From Escherichia coli (GTDB taxonomy: Bacteria; Pseudomonadota; Gammaproteobacteria; Enterobacterales; Enterobacteriaceae): a stretch of DNA of 64,000 nucleotides. Below the pieces are notes generated by a model. It did not search any database, was not told where the DNA came from, and saw only the letters and a program-made list of their open reading frames with translations. This document shows, one piece after another, positions 4,802-64,000 of this stretch. The DNA is taken from NCBI RefSeq assembly GCF_003018255.1, contig NZ_CP027440.1. One strand, written 5' to 3'. The translations under genes were made by a program, and so were the position numbers. How positions within the stretch are numbered: the first letter of the stretch is position 1; each line of letters begins with the position of its first letter.

Positions 4802-5597
4802 GGTTCTCTCCAGCTTTAGTGTCGTTTTGTGTAGGGCAAAAACGAATGACATTCGTTAAATTAATCGGAAAACAAAGCATTACCTTTTAACTAAAAGATA
4901 AGTGACTGTGTTGACATAGTTTTAGCGAGAAATTAATTCTCCATAGGAGAGCAATATCACATCGCAGAATTACAGTGAGAACGTGCATAAATTTAGCGGG
5001 AAAAGACATAAGGGAAAGCCAATTTGTCAGACAAATTGTCGAATGCACAGCAGATTAATCCATAAGATTAGCCTGGAAATCCTTGTTGTCTTTGGTACCC
5101 ATGCGGGATGTCTTCTTTTTAACCAGTCAATAGGCCGCATTACCTGGCGTTGAGTTTTTGAAATGGTGTAATAACCACAACTCAAAGATGTGGAAAATGC
5201 GCGTCATTCATTTCGCCATTAATTATCACTGTGCTCATTAATTAACAGAACACGTATAATGAGAGCCATCTCGCAAAAATGAAAAAACGTTTTATAAAAT
5301 CATTGCTTCATCATGAATTCAAACCCACCTATTAATATCAACAAGATACAAAAAGCATCATCATTAAAATTCATTGCAGTTACATTGATTTCATCAATGA
5401 AATGTAAAAATATATAAACTTGATGATTTAAGCATTTTCTTATACCCGTTCAGACGTTATTCTTATTTCAGATCATCGTCAGAATTGACTCCACGATCAC
5501 ATTTCGGACCGGCAGAAAGGAATTATTCTGCAAACAGTAATTATGGTGTTTTGATTTATCTTGCACCTTTCCACTTCTGGATATAAGGATATTAGGT

Positions 5598-6101
5598 ATG
5601 GCAACCGCTGGAATGCTTCTCAAACTCAACTCTCAAATGAACCGCGAGTTTTACGCATCCAATCTCTACCTTCACCTGAGTAACTGGTGTTCTGAACAGA
5701 GTCTGAACGGCACCGCCACTTTCCTTCGCGCCCAGGCACAGAGTAATGTGACCCAAATGATGCGCATGTTTAACTTTATGAAGAGTGTCGGCGCTACCCC
5801 AATCGTTAAAGCCATTGATGTTCCCGGTGAAAAACTGAACTCTCTGGAAGAACTGTTCCAAAAAACGATGGAAGAATACGAGCAACGTTCAAGCACGCTG
5901 GCGCAGTTAGCCGATGAAGCGAAAGAACTGAATGATGATTCAACCGTCAATTTCCTGCGCGATCTGGAAAAAGAACAGCAGCATGATGGCCTGTTGCTGC
6001 AAACCATTCTTGATGAAGTGCGCAGTGCGAAACTTGCGGGTATGTGCCCTGTGCAGACCGACCAACATGTTCTGAATGTCGTGTCGCATCAGCTGCATTG
6101 A
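5598..6101 (+). CDS. ftnB: ferritin-like protein FtnB
   Basis: 167-aa [34 protein letters not shown]..., ferritin fold; paralog of ftnA located 1.3 kb downstream. Confidence 0.9.
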
Positions 6102-6145
6102 TCATACATCGGCGCTAATGCATTGCGCCGATGAAGTTTTTGAGA

Positions 6146-6182
6146 AACCGCTGCCTCATCTTTTTGAAGCAGCGGTTTTTTT
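6146..6182 (+). terminator. rho-independent terminator downstream of ftnB
   Basis: Stem aaccgctgc (6146-6154) pairs with gcagcggtt (6169-6177), followed by a T7 run. Confidence 0.6.
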
Positions 6183-6432
6183 AATGGGATTCGCCCTGTG
6201 GGGTAAACTTGAGTTCAATCAGCGCGATGGCTTTTTGGATTGCCCGCATGGTGACCGGGTCTGCGGCGGCGGGATGGTTAGTAAAGTCGATATTCTTCAG
6301 CTGGCTGGACATTTTTTCACGAACTTCAACGGGCGCGATTACATCGAGAACATCCAGAATTTGTTTGATAACCAACTGGCAAGCAACCACATCAGAAACC
6401 AGTTCCTGATCGGCATTCAGCGGCTGGGACAT
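6181..6432 (-). CDS. yecJ: DUF2766 family protein YecJ
   Basis: 83-aa [32 protein letters not shown]..., matching the K-12 yecJ position between ftnB and azuC. Confidence 0.85.
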
Positions 6433-6518
6433 CGTAAACTCCTGATAGCATTTTGAAAGCCGTTATAGTAGCGGCTTCACATCTTCAGCGATAGTCACAT
6501 CCACCGTCATCAGGACAC

Positions 6519-6546
6519 AAAAAAACCTGCCGGAGCAGGTTTTTTG
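6519..6546 (-). terminator. rho-independent terminator downstream of azuC
   Basis: Hairpin aacctgc-cgga-gcaggtt flanked by an A7 run (5' side) and a T5 run (3' side) on the plus strand, so it can terminate in either direction. Confidence 0.6.
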
Positions 6547-6633
6547 TTATCGGAACATATTGCCTGGCGGTACGTCTTTGAACGTCTTGCAATAGTTATT
6601 GAACATACTTTTCAGGATTTTGCGCAGTTTCAT
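6547..6633 (-). CDS. azuC: small membrane-associated protein AzuC (28 aa)
   Basis: Minus-strand ORF atgaaactgcgcaaaatcctg... translates to MKLRKILKSMFNNYCKTFKDVPPGNMFR*. It is absent from the supplied ORF track because it is shorter than the track's minimum length. Confidence 0.8.
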   Translation of the reverse strand: MKLRKILKSMFNNYCKTFKDVPPGNMFR

Positions 6634-6895
6634 CGCGGCACTCCAACCATTTGTTATACATGTGTTATTGTCTTTGCGCTTATAATATGACAACCATCAC
6701 AAAAATCAATCTTTATGTGATGTAAATCACATAAATACCCCTTTAATGTTATAAAAATGATAATCAAAAAGCAGCTACCCCATTTCTGACACCTACAGAT
6801 GGCGAGAAATAGCGCCTGCCAGGCGTCTTTTCCGGCCATTGTCGCAGCGCTGTAACGCGTAAAATAGTGCTTTCTTTTACTCTTCTGGCTGGACC

Positions 6896-7219
6896 ATGAG
6901 ACTTCTGATTCTGACTCTTTCATTAATAACGCTGGCGGGGTGTACGGTTACTCGCCAGGCCCATGTGAGCGAAGTTGACGCGGCAACAGGTATTGTACGG
7001 TTGGTTTATGACCAGGCTTTTTTGCAGCATGCCTATACCGATCGTTATGTCAGTCGCGGGATCGCCGATCGCGCATGCCAGCAGGAAGGCTATACCCACG
7101 CTATCCCCTTTGGTCAGCCAGTAGGCAACTGTAGCCTCTTTGCGGGTTCCTTATGTTTGAATACGGAATTCACTTTGTCATATCAGTGCCATCATTCCGC
7201 CTTCCCTGTCTTTCTCTAA
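6896..7219 (+). CDS. yecR: lipoprotein YecR
   Basis: 107-aa ORF with lipoprotein signal MRLLILTLSLITLAGC. Confidence 0.85.
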   Translation: MRLLILTLSLITLAGCTVTRQAHVSEVDAATGIVRLVYDQAFLQHAYTDRYVSRGIADRACQQEGYTHAIPFGQPVGNCSLFAGSLCLNTEFTLSYQCHHSAFPVFL

Positions 7220-7390
7220 ATGTTTTAATCAGCGAGGGGGATCTTCGCTGATTAAATAAATAGCGGTAATGCGTTTTATTCCCATTCGTATTTTTAATAA
7301 ATGAAGTTTATATTTTACCTTTTGCAAATAATAAAATAACAAATTATAGTGACGCCACAGCAACAAATATAACCTTTGTGGAGCACTATC

Positions 7391-7888
7391 ATGCTGAAAC
7401 CAGAAATGATTGAAAAACTTAATGAGCAGATGAACCTGGAACTGTACTCTTCACTGCTTTATCAGCAAATGAGCGCCTGGTGCAGCTATCATACCTTCGA
7501 AGGTGCTGCCGCGTTCCTGCGCCGTCACGCCCAGGAAGAGATGACGCATATGCAGCGTCTGTTTGATTATCTGACTGATACCGGCAACTTACCGCGTATT
7601 AATACCGTTGAATCTCCGTTTGCTGAATATTCCTCACTTGATGAATTATTCCAGGAAACCTATAAACACGAACAATTAATCACGCAGAAAATTAACGAAC
7701 TGGCTCATGCTGCAATGACCAATCAGGATTACCCAACATTTAATTTCCTGCAATGGTATGTTTCTGAGCAACATGAAGAAGAGAAACTGTTCAAATCGAT
7801 TATTGATAAATTAAGTCTGGCAGGCAAAAGCGGCGAAGGTTTGTATTTTATCGACAAAGAACTCTCTACCCTCGACACACAAAACTAA
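7391..7888 (+). CDS. ftnA: ferritin FtnA (iron storage)
   Basis: ORF 7376..7888; start trimmed to [31 protein letters not shown] (165 aa). Confidence 0.93.
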
Positions 7889-7925
7889 TGTTCTCCGGCG
7901 GCAGGTTTACTGCCGCCGTTTCAAA

Positions 7926-8165
7926 TCAGTGACGGCAAATCTTACTCTGATCGGTCGAAAAACCTTCTTCCGAAGGTATAAATTTGCCTTTTGCTGCCAG
8001 AAACGCCACCAACTCTCCCGCAGTCATCCCTTCTGCCGAGCAGGTGCGAAAACGTGCCTGTTCACCAAAACGCGCTTTAATTGCTGCTTCCAGACTGGCA
8101 TGCGTATATTGCTCGCCTGATTCAATCATCATATTTAACACTTCATGACCGTGAATAGAGTCCAT
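7926..8165 (-). CDS. yecH: YecH family protein
   Basis: 79-aa ORF MDSIHGHEVLNMMIESGEQYTHASLEAAIKARFG...; conserved position between ftnA and tyrP. Confidence 0.85.
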   Translation of the reverse strand: MDSIHGHEVLNMMIESGEQYTHASLEAAIKARFGEQARFRTCSAEGMTAGELVAFLAAKGKFIPSEEGFSTDQSKICRH

Positions 8166-10478: not shown

Positions 10479-10565
10479 TGGTACCCGGAGCGGGACTTGA
10501 ACCCGCACAGCGCGAACGCCGAGGGATTTTAAATCCCTTGTGTCTACCGATTCCACCATCCGGGC
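10479..10565 (-). tRNA. leuZ: tRNA-Leu (anticodon TAA)
   Basis: Reverse complement GCCCGGATGGTGGAATCGGTAGACACAAGGGATTTAAAATCCC...GGGTTCAAGTCCCGCTCCGGGTACCA; 87 nt with long variable arm and CCA end. Confidence 0.93.
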
Positions 10566-10577
10566 TCGGGAAGAAAG

Positions 10578-10651
10578 TGGAGGCGCGTTCCGGAGTCGAA
10601 CCGGACTAGACGGATTTGCAATCCGCTACATAACCGCTTTGTTAACGCGCC
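10578..10651 (-). tRNA. cysT: tRNA-Cys (anticodon GCA)
   Basis: Reverse complement GGCGCGTTAACAAAGCGGTTATGTAGCGGATTGCAAATCCGTCTAGTCCGGTTCGACTCCGGAACGCGCCTCCA; 74 nt. Confidence 0.93.
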
Positions 10652-10705
10652 AAATTCTTCAGGCCTTTCAGCCAGACATCCGCTTGACGCCGATGTCTTT
10701 TAAAC

Positions 10706-10781
<76 letters not shown>

Positions 10782-39770: not shown

Positions 39771-40000
39771 GTTTATTGCGTAACGCACTGGGAACACCCT
39801 CCGCGCCACCTAACCAGGTATTGCTGGGGCTGGCACTGTTTTTGACCTTTTTTATTATGTCGCCGGTGATCGACAAAATTTATGTCGATGCGTACCAGCC
39901 ATTTAGCGAAGAGAAAATATCAATGCAGGAGGCGCTGGAAAAAGGGGCGCAGCCGCTGCGTGAGTTTATGCTGCGTCAGACCCGTGAGGCAGATTTAGGG
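39771..40000. repeat. direct repeat copy 1 (native fliP sequence)
   Basis: 230 bp, identical apart from a 1-bp G deletion to 40106..40334. Confidence 0.9.
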
Positions 40001-40105: not shown

Positions 40106-40334
40106 GTTTATTGCGTAACGCACTGGAACACCCTCCGCGCCACCTAACCAGGTATTGCTGGGGCTGGCACTGTTTTTGACCTTTTTTATTATGTCGCCGG
40201 TGATCGACAAAATTTATGTCGATGCGTACCAGCCATTTAGCGAAGAGAAAATATCAATGCAGGAGGCGCTGGAAAAAGGGGCGCAGCCGCTGCGTGAGTT
40301 TATGCTGCGTCAGACCCGTGAGGCAGATTTAGGG
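40106..40334. repeat. direct repeat copy 2 (duplicated fliP sequence)
   Basis: Repeats 39771..40000 with a single G deletion (cactgggaac becomes cactggaac). Confidence 0.9.
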
Positions 40335-47562: not shown

Positions 47563-48483
47563 ATGCGTTTCCGCCAGTTGTTACCGCTTTTTGGCGCGCT
47601 GTTTGCGTTGTATATCATTTGGGGCTCAACCTATTTTGTCATTCGGATTGGCGTGGAAAGCTGGCCTCCGTTAATGATGGCGGGCGTTCGATTCCTGGCA
47701 GCCGGTATTTTATTGCTGGCATTTTTGCTACTGCGCGGACACAAACTTCCCCCGCTACGTCCGCTGCTCAATGCCGCGCTGATTGGCCTGTTATTGCTGG
47801 CTGTCGGTAATGGCATGGTGACGGTTGCCGAACATCAAAATGTTCCTTCCGGCATCGCCGCCGTAGTGGTTGCAACCGTGCCCCTCTTTACCCTGTGCTT
47901 CAGCCGCCTGTTTGGCATTAAAACGCGCAAACTGGAATGGGTGGGTATCGCCATTGGGCTTGCCGGAATCATCATGCTCAATAGCGGTGGAAATTTAAGC
48001 GGCAATCCGTGGGGCGCGATTCTGATTTTAATCGGCTCGATTAGCTGGGCGTTTGGCTCGGTTTATGGCTCGCGCATTACCTTACCTGTAGGGATGATGG
48101 CGGGTGCGATTGAGATGCTGGCGGCAGGCGTGGTGTTAATGATTGCGTCGATGATTGCGGGTGAAAAACTGACGGCGCTCCCTTCCCTTTCAGGCTTCCT
48201 TGCGGTCGGCTATCTGGCGCTGTTTGGTTCGATTATCGCCATTAACGCTTATATGTATTTAATCCGCAACGTCAGTCCGGCTCTCGCCACCAGCTACGCC
48301 TACGTTAACCCGGTGGTCGCGGTCTTACTGGGTACGGGACTGGGTGGCGAAACGCTGTCGAAGATTGAATGGCTGGCGCTCGGCGTGATTGTCTTCGCGG
48401 TGGTACTGGTCACGTTGGGAAAATATCTCTTCCCGGCAAAACCCGTAGTTGCGCCAGTTATTCAGGACGCATCAAGCGAGTAA
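47563..48483 (+). CDS. yedA: EamA/DMT-family transporter YedA
   Basis: 306-aa ORF with 10 predicted TM segments, MRFRQLLPLFGALFALYIIWGSTYFVIRIG. Confidence 0.9.
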   Translation: MRFRQLLPLFGALFALYIIWGSTYFVIRIGVESWPPLMMAGVRFLAAGILLLAFLLLRGHKLPPLRPLLNAALIGLLLLAVGNGMVTVAEHQNVPSGIAAVVVATVPLFTLCFSRLFGIKTRKLEWVGIAIGLAGIIMLNSGGNLSGNPWGAILILIGSISWAFGSVYGSRITLPVGMMAGAIEMLAAGVVLMIASMIAGEKLTALPSLSGFLAVGYLALFGSIIAINAYMYLIRNVSPALATSYAYVNPVVAVLLGTGLGGETLSKIEWLALGVIVFAVVLVTLGKYLFPAKPVVAPVIQDASSE

Positions 48484-48942
48484 ATGAATCCCCTGCGTGT
48501 CGATCTGCGCGCTGGCACCTTCGCCGCAGATCCACTCTTCCAGACGCTCGGTAAGCGCCGCATCCGTAAGCTTCTCGCGCCCACGTAACGCACACTCCCA
48601 GACAATCAGTACGCGCCAGCCGAGTTCCTGCAAGCGACTGATATCGCGGCGATCGCGTTCAACATTTTTACCTATCTTCTCCAGCCAGAACTCGGTTCGA
48701 GTCGCAGGCACTTTAAACAGATAGCAGTGATGATGATGCCAGAAGCAGCCGTGGGTAAATATCACGCAGCGATATTCATCAACGACAAAATCCGGGCGTC
48801 CGGGCAGACTGGCGTCCTGAACGCGAAACGCCAGGCCCTGCCCGGTTAACAAACTGGCGAGGCGCTTCTCAATCGCCGTATTACGCGTGGCAATTGCGCG
48901 CATATTTTTGCTGCGGGTGGCCTTATCGTGAACGTCGACCAT
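48472..48942 (-). CDS. vsr: very-short-patch-repair endonuclease Vsr
   Basis: ORF 48472..49104; start trimmed to [32 protein letters not shown] (156 aa); overlaps the dcm 3' end in a different frame. Confidence 0.9.
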
Positions 48943-50341
48943 GTTGTGCCTCTTGCTGACGCAACGCCACCGCCTGTTTGATTTTTGGCTCAAGCAGTTT
49001 TGCCACCGCGGCAAAGACCGGCACGACCACCGAGTTACCGAACTGGCGATAGGCCTGAGTGTCCGAAACCGGAATGCGGAATTTCGCTTCTCCCGGCGCT
49101 TCAAAACCCATTAAGCGCGCGCATTCCCGAGGCGTTAACCGACGTGGACGATGTTGCTGATTCAGCGGATCGTCAAAGTCTTTCTCACCCGTGGCCATAT
49201 CCCAGCCGCGATCGATTAGAATTTCCGCGCCATCTTTGTAATAACGCGCAGACAGCGTACGCGTGACGCTTTGCGGATTGTTCGGATAAACCATTCCATA
49301 ACCGAAGCCGTTACCGCGCGCCTGATGTTTTTTCGCATAACGATAGAGGTACTTCCACAGCACCGACGTCAGGATATATTTCGCCTCGACCATCGGGTCC
49401 AGCAGCTGCGCCAGCGTCACTCGCTGTGCAGGGAAACATTTGCTGATATCACGCAGAGTAAAATCGGCTTTCAGATTCAGATCGCGACGAAAACCCACCA
49501 GCACGATGCGTTCACGGTGCTGCGGCAGAAAATGTTTGCCGTCGATGATTTTCGGATCGTCTGGCCCGTTATCTTCTGCATCAGCCACGTCATAGCCCAG
49601 TTCGTCCAGCGTCTGCATGATGATGCGGAACGTTTTACCCTGGTCGTGACTTTTCAGGTTTTTGACGTTTTCGAGCACAAACATCGCCGGACGACGCGCG
49701 TCGATAATGCGCACCACATCAAAGAACAGCGTGCCCTGGGTATCGCAGGCAAAACCGTGCGCCCGCCCGAGCGAGTTCTTTTTCGATACGCCAGCCAGCG
49801 AAAATGGCTGACAAGGAAAACCCGCCAGTAATACATCGTGTTCAGGAATGTGTTGACGAATATGTTCCGCCGCCGCCTCATCACTCACGCCTTCTTTATG
49901 GCTGAGGGTGATGTCGCGGATATCTTCATTAAAATGATGCGTCGCCGGGTCGCAATAATGATTGGCTTTATAAGTGCGTACCGCATGTTTGTTCCATTCG
50001 CTGGTAAAGACGCACTGTCCGCCAATCGATTCAAAACCGCGACGGATGCCGCCAATTCCGGCAAATAGATCGATAAAGCGAAACGCATAATGCGGATGAT
50101 GTGCCGGTGGTTTGGGTAACAACGTTTGCAGATGGGCGAACTCTTTCTCACTTAAACGGTGCCATGCCGAGTCATTCGCCAGCGCACGTTTTAAAATTGC
50201 CGCGCTCCAGTGATTCTCACCCACACCATTAAGCTGCGCCACCAGCGTTTTAACATCATAAATTTGCAGCAGTTTCTCCAGCATTGCCTGAACGACATTC
50301 CCGGTGCTGTATGAATCGGTTACTGATATATTTTCCTGCAT
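48923..50341 (-). CDS. dcm: DNA-cytosine C5 methyltransferase Dcm (CCWGG)
   Basis: 472-aa [40 protein letters not shown]... with C5-MTase motifs FAGIGG, PCQPFS, ENV. Confidence 0.93.
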
Positions 50342-51526: not shown

Positions 51527-52070
51527 GACTCAATCATTTTTTGAACAAATAGATAAATTTTGCGCAACGGCGGTGAATACAGGAAAATTCGATTTGAACG
51601 ATGTTATTTATCTTTGATTTCGGCTTTATTAATTCACTCAATCAATATATTGGCACTGATTACAATTATACCTTTTTATTTTTCTGTGTCATCATGCCTC
51701 CGTTATTAGCCTTTTATCGTCTTGTTTATATTTTTTTGGCCGGCATGATGCCGGCTTTTTTTATGCCTTCATTAATGTGCGCGAGATCACACCAGCCGTT
51801 TAGCACACAATCATTGATACTCCCTATCTTTTCGATCAACTCATAACATATTGATATACATCCATAATGTTCGTGAATATTTATATTCAGAATTCATAGC
51901 CACGAATTATATTAAATAGATTAGAAACATTTTGAAATCTTTTAAATACATTTGTTACATGTAATCTTTAAAATAAAATGAACTTCATAGAATAGTATCC
52001 AAATGTGCTTTTTTTGGATAACAGCACTTATTGATATATTCATGAAGATTATAATCACAAGGGAATACAT

Positions 52071-52244: not shown

Positions 52245-52463
52245 TCAAAGAGAGAGCGCCACCTGTCCTGATTTCATTGGATGCGGCTGAACCGGATTTG
52301 ACTCTTTTGGCGTTGCAATCGAACGAACAAAAGTTTCATGAGTAACAAAAGTATGGCTGCAGTTAATGTTCTGGCACTGGTTGTAACGCTCTTTGGTCAA
52401 TGAAGATACCTGAAAACTGCTGCGAGTATGGGCGGCACTTCCACACAGTGGGCAAATCATCAT
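52245..52463 (-). CDS. ogr: P2 Ogr-like zinc-finger late-gene transcription activator
   Basis: ORF 52245..52496; MICPLCGSAAHTRSSFQVSSLTKERYNQCQNINCSHTFVTHETF contains the CxxC...CxxxxC Ogr/Delta zinc finger. Confidence 0.85.
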   Translation of the reverse strand: MMICPLCGSAAHTRSSFQVSSLTKERYNQCQNINCSHTFVTHETFVRSIATPKESNPVQPHPMKSGQVALSL

Positions 52464-52553
52464 TTTTCGAGTTCTCCCCATTTTTGCTAAATTCACAATA
52501 ATGATACCGCATTATTCCATTTTGAAAACTTAAAAGTTCTCCATTGCGAAGAA

Positions 52554-58218: not shown

Positions 58219-59391
58219 TTACGCGCTGACCTGGCTGGCGAAATTCACCAGGTACTGATCGGTGATGCGCTGACGCAGCATCAGGTTTTCAAGTGGCGGC
58301 ACTGGCGTGTAGTCGTAGTCGATGGTGAGTTTTCCGGCTTTCAGCGTGTCTTTGTCGTTCACCGACTCATCCAGCCAGCAATCACCACCAATGAGATAGC
58401 CCTGACTGACCAGGCTGCGCATTTTGGCGCGGATACCTTCGATAATGTCGCGGGCCAGCGACGGGTTAAGCGGTTTATCCACCGCCCACATGTGTGCTTC
58501 TGCCATCGTGTCCATCAGCACCTGCGCCGTGCGGGTGTAGTTTTCGAAGGCAAAGAGCGGGTCATCACTCAGGCAGCGGGAACCCCAGAAGCGGAAACCG
58601 TCTTTACGCACAAGCGTGGTGACGTCGTTCTGGTTCAGCAGACCTGCATCGGTTGCCGGGTCCTGCAGATCCCAGAACACATCTGCAGAAATTCCGGTGA
58701 CACCGTTCACGCCCACGTTGGACAGGCTTTTGTGCCATCCGGTCTGCTCGTCAATTTTGGCGCGCAGACCAAGCGCACGGGCGGTGGCATATGCCGTTGC
58801 TTCGGCATTCAGCACCGTGTCCCAGCCAGTAAAGTCAGGCCAGATCAGCATCCCTTCGCGCTGGCTGAAGTTTTCGCGGTAAGTGATCGCCTCCTGCACT
58901 GTCTTGCAGCCATACGCTGACAGGTAAGCAAATCCACGCAGGCTTTGCGCCACGCTCAGCAACTCAGTAGCTACCGCCTTGGTGTCGTGGCCTGGCACGC
59001 CGAGAATGCGCGGTTTAACGCCGAGCTGTGACTGGGCAGATAACAGGGCTTTCATACCTGTTTTTTTACCTTCAGCAGTCACTGCGCCGATGATATTGGT
59101 CGTGGTTTCGTCTTCCGTTTCACCCTGCGGCACACGCACAACAATGGTCACGGGTTTTGCCTGGTCAGCGATGGCATCCAGCGAACGGGCCAGAGTACCG
59201 GACTCACCCGCTTTACCGCTGGCAGTCAGCACATCAGTGATCAGCACGGGTTTATTAAGAGGAAACATTTTTGCATCGGCATCATCGCCCGTGCAGACCA
59301 TACCCACGATGGCGGTGCTCACCGTGGTAATAGATCGGGTGCCTTCGTTGACTTCAACAACGCGCACCCCGTGGTGGTAATCCTGAGCCAT
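58219..59391 (-). CDS. contractile tail sheath protein (P2 FI-like)
   Basis: 390-aa [56 protein letters not shown]. Confidence 0.9.
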
Positions 59392-59533
59392 AGTGGCGAA
59401 CCTCCTGATTGGATTAGGCTTCGCCCTATGTTGAAGTGATTGTGCCTGACAAACAGCTAAGCGCAGTTGTGTCGTTATTCACACAAAATAACGGTATTTG
59501 TCTGCTTGCAGGGATAATCAACATAATGCTGAT

Positions 59534-60100
59534 TCAGGGGGATTCATTGATCTTATTTGCCGGAAATTTTCTATAAATGGTAGAAACGCCTACATCAAAA
59601 ATCAGTGCAATACGCTGTCTTGATTCTCCGGCCTCGAGTAAACGCCCAATCTGTGCCCACTGTTCGGTGGTCAACTTAGGACGGCGTCCACCTACTCTGC
59701 CTTTGGCACGAGCTGCAGCCAGCCCTGCCCTGGTACGTTCAACTATCAGTTCGCGTTCCATTTCAGCCAGGGCACCCATGACATGAAAAAAGAAACGGCC
59801 CATTGGGGTACTGGTATCAATACTGTCAGTCAGGCTTCTGAAATTCACACCACGCTGGCGCAACTCTTCTATCAGCGTAACAAGATGCCGCATACTGCGC
59901 CCCAACCTGTCCAGCTTCCAGACAACCAGCGTGTCTCCTGCCGATAGTGTCCTGAGTAGTTTTTTCAGCCCCGGTCTGTCGGACTTAGTGCCACTGATTT
60001 TGTCCTCAAAAATCCGCTCACATCCCGCGCAGTTCAGTGCATTACGTTGCAAATCGGTGTTCTGGTCATTTGTTGACACGCGTACATAGCCAATAAGCAT
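59534..60100 (-). CDS. pin: serine-recombinase DNA invertase (Pin/Gin/Cin/Hin family)
   Basis: ORF 59534..60106; MLIGYVRVSTNDQNTDLQRNAL... with catalytic Ser in the YVRVST motif and C-terminal HTH (GVSTIYRKF); very close to e14 Pin. Confidence 0.9.
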   Translation of the reverse strand: MLIGYVRVSTNDQNTDLQRNALNCAGCERIFEDKISGTKSDRPGLKKLLRTLSAGDTLVVWKLDRLGRSMRHLVTLIEELRQRGVNFRSLTDSIDTSTPMGRFFFHVMGALAEMERELIVERTRAGLAAARAKGRVGGRRPKLTTEQWAQIGRLLEAGESRQRIALIFDVGVSTIYRKFPANKINESP

Positions 60101-60155
60101 GATCATCCCCCTGAATAAAAACCGGAGATGATGCCAGTTAGCTGTTACCTCTGCA

Positions 60156-60181
60156 TTTTCTTAAACGTTGGTTTGGGAGAA
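60156..60181. repeat. invertase crossover site, left (pix/gix/cix-like)
   Basis: ttttcttaaacgttggtttgggagaa; inverted repeat of the site at 62124..62149. Confidence 0.75.
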
Positions 60182-60664
60182 GGTTCAGCATTACCTGTTG
60201 GTGCGCCTGTTCCGTGGCCTTCAGAGACACCTCCAACAGGCTGGCTGAAATGCAACGGGGCGGCTTTTTCTGCTGAAGAATACCCGGAACTGGCAAAGGC
60301 TTACCCGACAAATAAATTGCCTGATTTACGAGGTGAATTTATTCGTGGCTGGGATGATGAACGTGGTGTGGATAGTGGGCGAACTCTGCTTTCAGCGCAA
60401 GGAGATGCTATTCGAAACATTACTGGCGGTTTTGGTCAGTTGCGCGTAAACAGCGAAATTAATGCAATTGTCGATGTTCAAAGTGTGAGTGGGGCTTTTT
60501 ACGGAGGTACCTCAGTCCGGAATAACATCAATGTGTCTATGACATACGCTAATGACCGAAAAATCCGACAAGATGTTCACTTCTCGGCGGCAAATGTTGT
60601 TCCAACAGCAAATGAAAATCGTCCACGTAACATCGCCTTTAATTATATTGTGAGGGCCGCATGA
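60156..60664 (+). CDS. alternative tail-fibre C-terminal segment (Sv'-like), silent in this orientation and lacking its own start
   Basis: The frame is open through the crossover site (..LGE-GSALPVGAPVPWPSETPPTGWLKCNGAAFSAEEYPELAKAYPTNKLPDLRGEFIRGWDDERG...), so inversion would fuse it to the H constant part at the conserved GLGE junction. The track's ATG at 60128 is probably not a real start. Confidence 0.7.
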
Positions 60665-61265
60665 TGAATAAAGCTGTATTAAATAGCAAACTCATTGCCA
60701 TAAAAGCGGGAGACATTATCATTTATAATTATGATGGTGAAACGCGGGAATATATTTCTACATCAACTGAATATCTCGCTGTCGGCGTCGGTATCCGGCA
60801 TGTTCTTGTTTGGATGCACCAGGTACACATAAAGCTGGTTATGCAATTTGTCGTTCTGTAGATTTAAACTCATGGGAATATGTGCCAGACCATCGCGGTG
60901 AAGTTGTCTATAACACCGAAACGGGAGAATCAAAAGAAATCACAGCTCCGGGTGATTACCCTGAAAATACAACCACTATCGCCCCATTAACGCCATACGA
61001 TAAATGGGATGGCGAGAAATGGGTGACGGATACCGAGGCACAGCATAGCGCCGCAGTAGATGCAGCGGAAGCACAGCGCCAGTCGCTGATTGATACTGCA
61101 ATGGCTTCCATCAGTCTGATTCAACTGAAATTGCATGCCGGACGTAAACTGACGCAGGCAGAAACAACCCGGCTTAACGCTGTGCTGGATTACATTGACA
61201 CGGTGACGGCAACAGATACCAGCACCGCGCCGGATGTCATCTGGCCTGAACTACCGGAGGCGTAG
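60661..61265 (+). pseudogene. tail-fibre assembly protein gene (Tfa', partner of Sv') with an apparent 1-bp frameshift
   Basis: N-terminal part in frame 1 (60661..60861, MMNKAVLNSKLIAIKAGDIIIYNYDGETREYISTSTEYLAVGVGI) and C-terminal part in another frame (60810..61265, ...DAPGTHKAGYAICRSV...TDTSTAPDVIWPELPEA). The frames join if one C is added in ggtatc-cggca around 60795. Confidence 0.6.
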
Positions 61266-61680
61266 GCCATTCAATATCTGGAGCACTGGAGGTATCAACC
61301 AGTTCCAGTGCGTCCAGATAATCCAGCCATAAATTATATTGTTCCAGTTCGTCACCTTTCAGACGACCAATAGCAGCTTTGCCAGGCCACTGATGGGTGT
61401 TGATGTAGGTATTGGCTTCTGAAACCAAAGATATTTTTTTCATTTCAGCCATCAACACCTCATCCTCTTTTGAAGGCGGTGGGGAATTAATCCATATTGG
61501 CCGTCCTGAACTGTCAGCGCCAATTTCTTTCCCTTCTGGATGCAGCCCAAGAAATTGCTCATATCTTTCTCTGGTAATTTCAATAACATCATCAGGAAGC
61601 GTTCCCGCATCCTCATATTCTGGAAACAATTCTTGCAGATAAAAACTTTTACTTCCGGGTGAAAAGAATACTGAGTTCAT
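61237..61680 (-). CDS. tail-fibre assembly protein (Tfa / P2 gpG-like), active orientation
   Basis: 147-aa ORF directly downstream of H; C-terminus ...DTSSAPDIEWPTPPVVQAR resembles the Tfa family C-terminal motif. Confidence 0.8.
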   Translation of the reverse strand: MNSVFFSPGSKSFYLQELFPEYEDAGTLPDDVIEITRERYEQFLGLHPEGKEIGADSSGRPIWINSPPPSKEDEVLMAEMKKISLVSEANTYINTHQWPGKAAIGRLKGDELEQYNLWLDYLDALELVDTSSAPDIEWPTPPVVQAR

Positions 61681-61682
61681 TC

Positions 61683-63185
61683 TTACCGTCCAATGATTAA
61701 GGCTGAGACGCTGGTATCTGAAGGAAAGGCTGCATTCAGTGGTTTGTCGACTTTGAATACAATCGTATTATTCCCCCTGACAGCGGCAAAAGAACAAACC
61801 GCAGTCGCGTATGAACCTGTAATATTACTGGATACACCACCATAAGCTGTTGTTGATACCAGAGGGATAACGCCCAGCACCTTATTAGGAAATACAAAGG
61901 GCAATGTGGCTGTGGCAATATAAGACTTATTAGAACCTGTGATGGAATAAGCATTATCAGTCATTCCATTCATCGCCACTGGGCCGCTTATACTTACAGT
62001 AACCATCTGAATGATTAGCCCGTCAGGTTGACGAATCACAAAATTTCCATTGCCACCAGTAACCGTCCAGAAAGACATATCAGGGATTTGGTTTTCCCCG
62101 TTGCCCACATTCCGTTTTGCCGCTTCTCCCAAACCAAGGTATGTGAGAAGACCAGCTACATCCTTTCCACTCAAATTGGTAAGCGTATTGTCCAGCGGTT
62201 GTTTACCTGCCAGCGCATTAAGCATTGTCGTGGCAAAGTTCGGATCATTCCCCAGTGCCGCCGCCAGTTCGTTCAGTGTATCCAGTGCAGCAGGTGCAGA
62301 ACCCACCATTCCTGCAATCGCCGATTTCACAAAAGCCGTAGTGGCAATCTGTGTATTGTTGACCGACTGCGCCGCCGTGGGGGCTGTTGGCGTTCCGGTG
62401 AGTGCCGGACTCGACAACGGTGCTTTTAGTGCCAGCGCATTGTTAATGGTGGTACTGAAATTCGGATCATTGTTAATGGCTGCGGCTATTTCTTTCAGCG
62501 TGTCCAGCGTGGCTGGCGCACCATTAATAAGGGCCGTCAGTGCCGCCTGTACAAACGCAGTGGTCGCAACCTGCGTGGTATTATTCCCCGCCGCTGGCGT
62601 TGGCGCTTTGGGGGTTCCGGTAAATGTCGGGCTGGCTTTTGGCGCGTACTGTGAATGCGGGTCCGGTGCGGCAAGATGTTTTGCCATCTGATCATCCGCG
62701 TACACCTTCAGCTCCAGTGCCTTGTCATCCACATACTTGCGGGTTGCCAGCACTACAGCAGGGTCGATTTTCAGGGTGATATTGTCCGTGCTGCTGGTAA
62801 TCAGCACCATGCGCACGGTCTGAGTGCGCCCGCTACCTTCAGCCAGTTGCGGCTTATAGCTTTCCGGGCAGTTGCCCACGGCAATCAATGCCCCGGACTC
62901 ATCAAACAAGCCCACTTCACGTATCCACCAACCGCCCTCGTTTTCAGGGATCACCTGTTCGGCAATAATCTGGCTGCTGTTCTGCGGGTCGATATAAAGC
63001 ATATTCAGCGCAGCCCGGCGTTTCTCATTTACCAGTGCCGTCTGCTTTGCGTCCGGCGTTGGCAATACTCCACCGCCATCGCCCACCGCCATATGGGTAA
63101 TTTTTAGCGGCACACCGAGCGCGGCGGCGCTGGCAAGTTTCGCCGCGCCAATATCCGTCAGCAGGGTATAAAATTTTGTGCTCAT
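61683..63185 (-). CDS. tail fibre protein (P2 gpH-like); C-terminal part (61683..62123) lies inside the invertible segment
   Basis: 500-aa ORF; N-terminus MSTKFYTLLTDIGAAKLASAAALGVPLKITHMAVGDGGG... resembles P2 gpH; repeated motif TAFV...ALDTLNELAAALGNDPNF. Confidence 0.88.
   Translation of the reverse strand: MSTKFYTLLTDIGAAKLASAAALGVPLKITHMAVGDGGGVLPTPDAKQTALVNEKRRAALNMLYIDPQNSSQIIAEQVIPENEGGWWIREVGLFDESGALIAVGNCPESYKPQLAEGSGRTQTVRMVLITSSTDNITLKIDPAVVLATRKYVDDKALELKVYADDQMAKHLAAPDPHSQYAPKASPTFTGTPKAPTPAAGNNTTQVATTAFVQAALTALINGAPATLDTLKEIAAAINNDPNFSTTINNALALKAPLSSPALTGTPTAPTAAQSVNNTQIATTAFVKSAIAGMVGSAPAALDTLNELAAALGNDPNFATTMLNALAGKQPLDNTLTNLSGKDVAGLLTYLGLGEAAKRNVGNGENQIPDMSFWTVTGGNGNFVIRQPDGLIIQMVTVSISGPVAMNGMTDNAYSITGSNKSYIATATLPFVFPNKVLGVIPLVSTTAYGGVSSNITGSYATAVCSFAAVRGNNTIVFKVDKPLNAAFPSDTSVSALIIGR
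62124..62149. repeat. invertase crossover site, right (pix/gix/cix-like)
   Basis: ttctcccaaaccaaggtatgtgagaa; lies inside the H coding sequence at codons ~346-354 (LTYLGLGEA). Confidence 0.75.
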
Positions 63186-63787
63186 GGATTCACTCTCATT
63201 GTGTCAATAACATGGACCGCCCCGCCTTCATGCGCGGTGCCACCGGAAATAATCGTTTCGTTGATATACGGATAGATCGTGATTTCTTCGCCAAGATAGC
63301 TGGCGGCTCCCACCCAATGCGGGCCGCTGGTCTGCAGATTGATGGACATGCCGATCATGTGGCGGCTACATGGTTTGGCATCGCTTATCAGTCGCTCAAG
63401 TTCCAGATAGGTATCTTCAGTGATGCCCTGGTCCTGCACGCCGATATCCAGGCGAAACGTGCCCGGTGTTTCTCCGGTCTGCCACCACTCAATAATGCGG
63501 ATCAGGAATCCGAACGGTTCCACCGCCCGCCGCACGGCACTGGTGGTTCCTTTATGCTGATGAATATAAAAAGCATCCTTCACTACCTGGCGTTTGACGC
63601 TTTCTGTCCAGCCCTCGTCCCAGCGATCCACAGAGAACGCCCAGGCGAGATAAGGCAGGAAGCTGACCGGACAGGTAGCCGGATTCCACAAGTCACGCAG
63701 CGGCACCTGCAAATCAGAAATCCCGCTACAGGTTTGCGCCAGTCGGCGCTCCAGTGAAGTTGAACCCGGTGGCAGCAGACTATTCAT
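63182..63787 (-). CDS. baseplate protein (P2 gpI-like)
   Basis: 201-aa ORF with RDLWNPATCPVSFLPYLAWAFSVDRWDE... matching my memory of P2 gpI (RELWNPDTCPANLLPWLAWAFSVDRWDE). Confidence 0.85.
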   Translation of the reverse strand: MNSLLPPGSTSLERRLAQTCSGISDLQVPLRDLWNPATCPVSFLPYLAWAFSVDRWDEGWTESVKRQVVKDAFYIHQHKGTTSAVRRAVEPFGFLIRIIEWWQTGETPGTFRLDIGVQDQGITEDTYLELERLISDAKPCSRHMIGMSINLQTSGPHWVGAASYLGEEITIYPYINETIISGGTAHEGGAVHVIDTMRVNP

Positions 63788-64000
63788 CCGTTCCTCCGTT
63801 GGTTACGCTCCACTGCGTACATGATGCCGCCTGTGTTTTGTTCAGGACCACATCCGCCAGCGGAGAAGCCAGTTCCACACGTTGAACACCCTCAACATGC
63901 AGAGCAGCAAAGATGGCGCTACGGCGAATATCCCGACCAAGCCTCGTCTGGCTGGCAATGTACTTCTGCAGACTGGCTTTTGCCGCTGCCATTACCGGCT
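63780..64000 (-). CDS. baseplate assembly protein (P2 gpJ-like), C-terminal part only (5' end beyond window)
   Basis: ORF fragment ...LQKYIASQTRLGRDIRRSAIFAALHVEGVQRVELASPLADVVLNKTQAASCTQWSVTNGGTDE; overlaps the gpI start. Confidence 0.75.
   Translation of the reverse strand, partial: PVMAAAKASLQKYIASQTRLGRDIRRSAIFAALHVEGVQRVELASPLADVVLNKTQAASCTQWSVTNGGTDE

Follow-up and report, generated by a model that had tools for sequence, protein, structure and literature searches.

The interval at positions 59392-60155 very probably marks the junction of two ordinary modules of P2-like phages (Peduoviridae), the pin tail-fibre switch and the late promoter pF, with no cargo or defence gene between them. 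It lies in a P2-like prophage within a 64,000-nucleotide stretch of Escherichia coli DNA, referred to as the window, and it extends between the start of FI (59391) and the first base of the left inverted repeat of an invertible segment (60156). The corresponding place in P2, with the tail-fibre assembly gene G on one side and the FI promoter pF on the other, is the Z/fun hotspot. The G-to-FI gap of P2 carries fun(Z), a 528-aa gene on the opposite strand annotated as blocking growth of T5, together with the terminator of the V operon; neither a fun(Z) homologue nor any cargo gene is present here. Half of the invertible segment plus pin occupy the fun(Z) site, which leaves this hotspot of the prophage without cargo or defence genes. 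We found no evidence that contradicts this two-module reading.

The visible part of the prophage (52.2-64 kb) is the right arm of a P2-like prophage, and its minus-strand order, I-H-G-[segment]-pin-FI-FII-E-T-U-D-ogr, agrees with that of P2. The right boundary of the slot is FI (58219..59391, minus strand), which heads the late F operon and encodes the tail sheath; it has Phage_sheath_1 (E=8e-33), Phage_sheath_1C and Gp18_domIII_N domains and is annotated as a tail sheath protein in relatives. Gene I (63182-63787, minus strand) matched Tail_P2_I in Pfam, and the remaining genes returned an FII tube domain, Phage_TAC_7, a tape-measure domain, GpU, GPD and Ogr_Delta. The late-gene activator gene ogr (52245..52496, minus strand) encodes an Ogr_Delta zinc finger (E=7e-22), is called ogr/Delta-like in a relative integrated at the same site, and no other prophage gene separates it from the chromosome junction; homology confined to prophages starts at ~52154, just past it. 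Because the prophage ends there, at ~52.1 kb, the int and old/tin hotspots lie beyond position 64000. The content beyond 64000 as deduced from relatives was discarded, these phages being mosaic.

Most of the interval is taken up by pin (59534..60100, minus strand; stop codon at 59534-59536), which encodes a 188-aa serine DNA invertase of the Gin/Hin/Cin/Pin family. The protein has Resolvase (PF00239, E=2e-53) and HTH_7 (PF02796, E=1.5e-15) domains in Pfam and is 74% identical over 184 residues to Mu Gin in structure 3UJ3 (E=1e-92), with the catalytic Ser9 present; relatives annotate its counterpart as a DNA invertase. It has both the N-terminal catalytic domain with Ser9/10 and the C-terminal HTH that mark a small serine recombinase. 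The open reading frame as listed starts at 60106, two codons earlier; translation likely starts at the ATG at 60100 (MLIGYVRVS...), which lies 6 nt after a GGGGGA Shine-Dalgarno sequence and agrees with Gin and with how RefSeq annotates relatives. Inversion by Pin would presumably require Fis. The recombinational enhancer of such switches comprises two Fis sites about 48 bp apart in the 5' part of the invertase gene. A scan of pin for a Fis enhancer, using a loose G-N13-C motif at ~48-bp spacing, returned many candidates, some at gene positions 103-137, and no convincing pair, the motif being too degenerate.

Within 59300-63400, the best inverted repeat is formed by 60156-60182 and 62123-62149, the latter inside the tail-fibre gene H; it contains two 26-bp crossover sites. 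The site beside pin (60157..60182, minus strand) reads TTCTCCCAAACC-AA-CGTTTAAGAAAA with its central dinucleotide at 60168-60169, and the site within H (62124..62149, plus strand) reads TTCTCCCAAACC-AA-GGTATGTGAGAA with its central dinucleotide at 62136-62137. Their left half-sites and central AA are identical, their orientation is inverted and one of them adjoins pin, which is the layout of the hix, gix, cix and pix sites of the Hin/Gin family.

Between the two sites lies a segment of ~2 kb with two gene pairs, the H tip and G on the minus strand and an alternative tip and chaperone on the plus strand. H (61683..63185, minus strand; Phage_tail_fib N-terminal domain, E=4.5e-65) encodes 500 aa in the present orientation and contains the crossover site, which separates a constant part (63185 to ~62137) from a variable tip (62136-61683). 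G (61237..61680, minus strand; Caudo_TAP, E=5e-28) is the tail-fibre assembly gene now in the expressed orientation. On the plus strand, Hv' (60128..60664; Collar PF07484, E=3e-16) is an alternative tail-fibre C-terminus, silent in the present orientation, and tfa' (60661..61265) is an alternative tail-fibre assembly gene with a Caudo_TAP match (E=1e-32) in its second open reading frame. Together, tfa', Hv', pin and the promoter described below wholly explain the gap from the stop of G (61237) to the start of FI (59391).

In-silico inversion, with the exchange placed at the central dinucleotides, fused the constant part of H in frame to Hv', with the junction after ...LTYLGLGE, and gave an intact 514-aa H' with Collar at its end. 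We propose that Pin would recombine the inverted 26-bp sites and flip the ~2-kb segment, joining the constant part of H either to Hv and G, the present state, or to Hv' and tfa'; the resulting exchange of the H tip would switch host range. Switching within the population is a prediction from a single assembled sequence. A 1-nt deletion (CCC to CC, at ~60795-60796) splits tfa' into open reading frames of 66 and 151 aa. By alignment, the gene is intact, at 606 nt, in E. coli OkiPb01678, and CCC is kept in three IMG/VR relatives (L005, L016 and L018) with the same flanks. The frameshift may truly inactivate the flipped state, or it may be a sequencing or assembly error in the C-run. Because tfa' is frameshifted, the flipped state may yield a fibre without its chaperone; the switch may therefore be partly decayed, unless the sequence is in error.

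The same components are found in the G segment/Gin system of Mu, the C segment/Cin system of P1 and the P segment/Pin system of e14, which use Fis-dependent serine invertases of the Din family. In common with these systems are the serine recombinase, an inverted pair of 26-bp sites with a ...AAACC-AA-... core, the ~2-kb segment, two divergent pairs of tip and chaperone genes, a constant fibre part outside the segment and an invertase gene that abuts one site. Unlike in Mu, P1 and e14, the switch here is built into a tail module of the P2 type, flanked by G and FI, and its alternative chaperone gene tfa' is frameshifted.

Close counterparts exist among the Peduoviridae. Escherichia phage 500465-1 (Wadgaonvirus) has the same succession of FI, 142 bp, DNA invertase, inverted fibre and chaperone genes, G and H; identity is 99.8% over a stretch that begins in the 5' part of FI, takes in pin and stops at the crossover site, beyond which the segment contents differ, the usual fibre-tip mosaicism. 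Other invertase-carrying members of the family with the same order are Klebsiella phage KP12, Escherichia phages Cartapus and pro483, and Salmonella phage SEN8, in all of which, as in 500465-1, the FI-pin-segment layout is annotated. At a coverage of at least 80%, this layout occurs in 187 complete E. coli genomes. An invertase in the Z/fun slot is thus a common and already described arrangement: Z/fun is one of two classical P2 hotspots, is mixed-purpose and often encodes a DNA invertase (Egorov & Atkinson, bioRxiv 10.1101/2024.10.15.618418). Rousset et al. 2022 (PMC9122126) treat old/tin as the P2 hotspot and a 2026 bioRxiv preprint (10.64898/2026.02.27.708500) adds only one among the late genes, 'downstream of GpL'; neither mentions fun or an invertase. 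The arrangement is ordinary, and finding it here matters little in itself.

The second module lies in the 142 bp between pin and FI (59392..59533, minus strand), which most likely hold the Ogr-dependent late promoter of the FI operon, an assignment drawn from its position, from its conservation and from ogr being encoded in this prophage. AGGAGG at 59398-59403 is the FI ribosome-binding site. At 59468..59485 there is an exact match to the TGT-N12-ACA dyad, a motif that in P2-type Ogr-dependent late promoters is centred about 55 bp before the transcription start; here it is probably where the Ogr/Delta activator of pF binds. From the centre of the dyad to the FI ATG is 85 bp. The corresponding distance in the P2 reference is 83 bp, measured from the feature annotated 'activator binding site; activation of pF promoter', and transcription there has been mapped to start 25 bp ahead of FI. 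The conserved block AACATAG (59426..59432, minus strand), nearly invariant, is a candidate -10 element of pF, and its P2 counterpart, AAAATA, lies at the corresponding distance from the mapped start.

To compare the region upstream of FI, we aligned 12 relatives and P2, picked for differing upstream content (pin, nothing, acyltransferase or membrane protein). The P2 pF was too diverged in a 4-sequence MAFFT alignment, and we used a direct reading of P2 together with the 13-sequence alignment. The TTGT and CA of the dyad are invariant in all 13 sequences, and little or no variation is seen in the ACA half-site, AACATAG or the ribosome-binding site, whereas 5' of the dyad the sequence is unrelated between cargo classes. 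Against the acyltransferase-carrying relative L037, homology of the window runs from the FI ATG to 59489, 4 bp beyond the dyad, and then ends. The dyad is the right-hand edge of the variable slot and, defining that edge at base resolution, can serve as an anchor for mining the hotspot in other P2-like prophages.

TGT-N12-ACA turns up 17 times in the window against 15 expected, which is no enrichment, and we therefore based the promoter call on where the dyad lies and how well it is conserved. Shared with P2 pF are a dyad of this type at the same distance from FI to within 2 bp, the -10-like block and an ogr gene in the same prophage; the sequence between these conserved elements has diverged here. 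We expect the product of ogr, a late-gene activator, to work through this dyad, and pF, once activated, would drive FI-FII-E-T-U-D.

We searched 20 open reading frames of the visible prophage with PADLOC, among them FI and pin, short plus-strand frames within pin or opposite it, all genes of the segment, H, G, I, FII, E, U, D, ogr and a partial J. No defence family emerged beyond chance-level matches, which were those of tfa' (E=0.014) and the tape measure (E=0.009); P2 Fun(Z) itself likewise gave one at chance level (E=0.003). The absence of defence genes is read against the PADLOC v2 models (2023), which do not cover all known defence families and in which P2 Fun(Z) has no real match; by tblastn, the window contains no homologue of P2 Fun(Z). 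There is no non-structural cargo gene between G and pF/FI and no homology to Fun(Z) or a defence family, the features by which defence cargo at Z/fun would be recognized.

These results bear out much of the preliminary description of this DNA. Its statement that the Z/fun position holds the invertase rather than a defence gene agrees with the exact coordinates, the Resolvase and HTH_7 domains and the lack of any meaningful PADLOC match, and its view that the visible prophage contains no candidate defence system is upheld by the PADLOC search over the visible arm and by the tblastn search for Fun(Z). The defence-domain protein overlapping 59392-60155 that would have spoken against it did not appear in the profile search of the visible part. 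The edge of an invertible segment, which it places at this locus, is found where the left inverted repeat begins at 60156, and the int and old/tin hotspots do lie outside the window, both of them beyond 64000. The description also gave ~140 bp of non-coding DNA between FI and pin: the length was right, at exactly 142 bp, but the stretch is not empty, as it contains the conserved dyad and with it the probable pF promoter. As annotation, the result is useful in that the prophage adds no defence gene at the Z/fun slot, which shifts the search for defence genes to the int and old/tin ends beyond the window. Of P2-like prophages, 49% carry a complete known defence system.

We asked what occupies the slot in relatives, using 80 IMG/VR loci with an FI at least 90% identical, a sample that was not dereplicated and is biased to close relatives of this FI. 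Slot content was evaluable in 58 loci. In 31 of these 58, G is followed directly by pF/FI with nothing in between, and 22 of the 58 have a Pin homologue beside FI, always co-directional with it and 96-146 bp from its ATG (2 are truncated). A membrane acyltransferase of the Acyl_transf_3 family (Pfam E ~1e-26) fills the slot in 4/58 loci and a 244-aa membrane protein in 1/58. Non-invertase cargo among the sampled close relatives is therefore mostly O-antigen-type acyltransferases and not classical defence systems. This refines the preliminary description, which had presented the slot as a common home of variable superinfection-exclusion or defence cargo.

Crossover sites accompany the invertase in these relatives. 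In the 80-locus sample, at least two sites occur in 21 of the 24 loci with a full-length pin, and in 19 of those 21 one site adjoins pin. A site stands exactly 790 bp upstream of the FI ATG, the same distance as here, in 17 of the 24; L078 has a site at 752 bp and L082 has sites at 752 and 1190 bp. The second site of pin-carrying relatives is within H at a variable distance, and tfa'-type genes occur on either strand among them. Where a full-length pin is lacking, there is at most one site, an orphan; L060 alone differs, with a truncated pin and two sites. Orphan sites inside H were seen in the pin-less loci L023, L029, L049 and L068, which suggests frozen fibres. The pin-carrying loci L077 and L082 each have three crossover sites, which suggests, by analogy with Min of p15B, that inversion there may be multi-segment and shufflon-like.

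Two loci with an acyltransferase show what look like traces of the switch. In L017 (IMGVR_UViG_2802429224_000012, 7765-8001), one of the four loci with an acyltransferase in the slot, it contains a 403-aa Acyl_transf_3 acyltransferase, and ~150 nt of the pin 3' end, with an internal deletion, remain directly upstream of pF; this remnant is the footprint of the replacement of pin by lysogenic-conversion cargo. In L064 (IMGVR_UViG_2913091994_000002, 5075-7850), an acyltransferase lies between two opposed copies of the same tail-fibre assembly gene, along with a reversed fibre tip and no invertase, which looks like cargo inserted in a former invertible segment.

The invertase and its crossover sites could themselves drive turnover of the hotspot, if Pin, by recombining them with foreign sites, were to bring in or lock fibre tips and make room for cargo in the slot. 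We consider this doubtful, and raise it because breakpoints fall near the crossover, because orphan sites persist in fixed fibres and because the acyltransferase of L017 has replaced all but the 3' end of pin. In the pin-less loci L024 and L037, homology to the H of the window ends at 62130 and 62134, respectively, 2-7 bp from the crossover at 62136/7. Turnover by crossover sites is not a new idea; Nilsson and colleagues reportedly proposed in 2004 that site-specific recombination shaped this region in P2-like coliphages.

Relatives also bear on whether the switch still works. The private 1-nt deletion in tfa', together with a decay series that includes truncated pins (L053 and L060), the 3' remnant of L017 and the orphan sites of the four pin-less loci, would fit a pin that is itself a decaying remnant, leaving a frozen segment and an invertase relic in the slot rather than a working host-range switch. 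We think this unlikely, as pin is full length here with Ser9 and the HTH, both crossover sites are intact with matching central dinucleotides, H' is intact after inversion and the frameshift could be a sequencing error in the C-run. The pF promoter can also be questioned. Pin and FI are co-directional and the RNA fold of the 142 bp is slightly more stable than that of shuffled sequences (z = -1.95), as might be expected if the stretch were mainly a pin terminator or spacer and FI were transcribed by read-through rather than from its own activator-dependent promoter. Neither a consensus scan nor folding revealed an intrinsic terminator between pin and FI, and there is no GC-rich stem with a U-run. 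Moreover, the dyad and the -10-like block are kept in relatives in which the upstream gene is absent, different or on the opposite strand, and are also present in P2, where both the site and the start are annotated, which makes the read-through explanation very unlikely.

We regard as extremely unlikely that the interval conceals a small or unrecognized defence or superinfection-exclusion determinant, which might be a 46-aa open reading frame (59436-59576, plus strand), an antisense frame in pin or a small RNA. Short plus-strand frames are indeed present, and PADLOC coverage is incomplete enough to miss P2 Fun(Z) itself. These frames, however, are shadows of pin or overlap the conserved promoter, and the interval gave no Pfam, PADLOC or Rfam match: the 46-aa frame of the intergenic region matched nothing in Pfam or PADLOC, and an Rfam search of 51.5-64 kb at a permissive threshold returned only the chromosomal rseX. 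From the pin stop to the dyad, only 48 bp lack an assignment, and in L078 and L082 the distance from the end of pin to the FI ATG is just 96 bp, too short to house such a determinant.

Just past ogr, the prophage adjoins the E. coli chromosomal genes dcm-yedJ-drpB-rseX, being inserted beside drpB/rseX and downstream of dcm-yedJ; the relative integrated at the same site has a truncated hypothetical coding sequence at the prophage-chromosome junction. A few hundred bases separate the prophage end from the Hfq-binding small RNA rseX (51673-51762, plus strand; Rfam 92.5 bits, E=6e-12). Close to the prophage but belonging to the host, the open reading frames at 48472-50341 (minus strand) correspond to dcm, for a cytosine methyltransferase, and vsr, for a very-short-patch repair endonuclease, as found in a related E. 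coli genome. Elsewhere in the chromosomal part of the window, we observed a cluster of tRNA-Leu(taa), tRNA-Cys(gca) and tRNA-Gly(gcc) genes (10479-10781, minus strand) and an 18-mer, TGTCGCCGGTGATCGACA, in two identical copies 334 bp apart (39858-39875 and 40192-40209).
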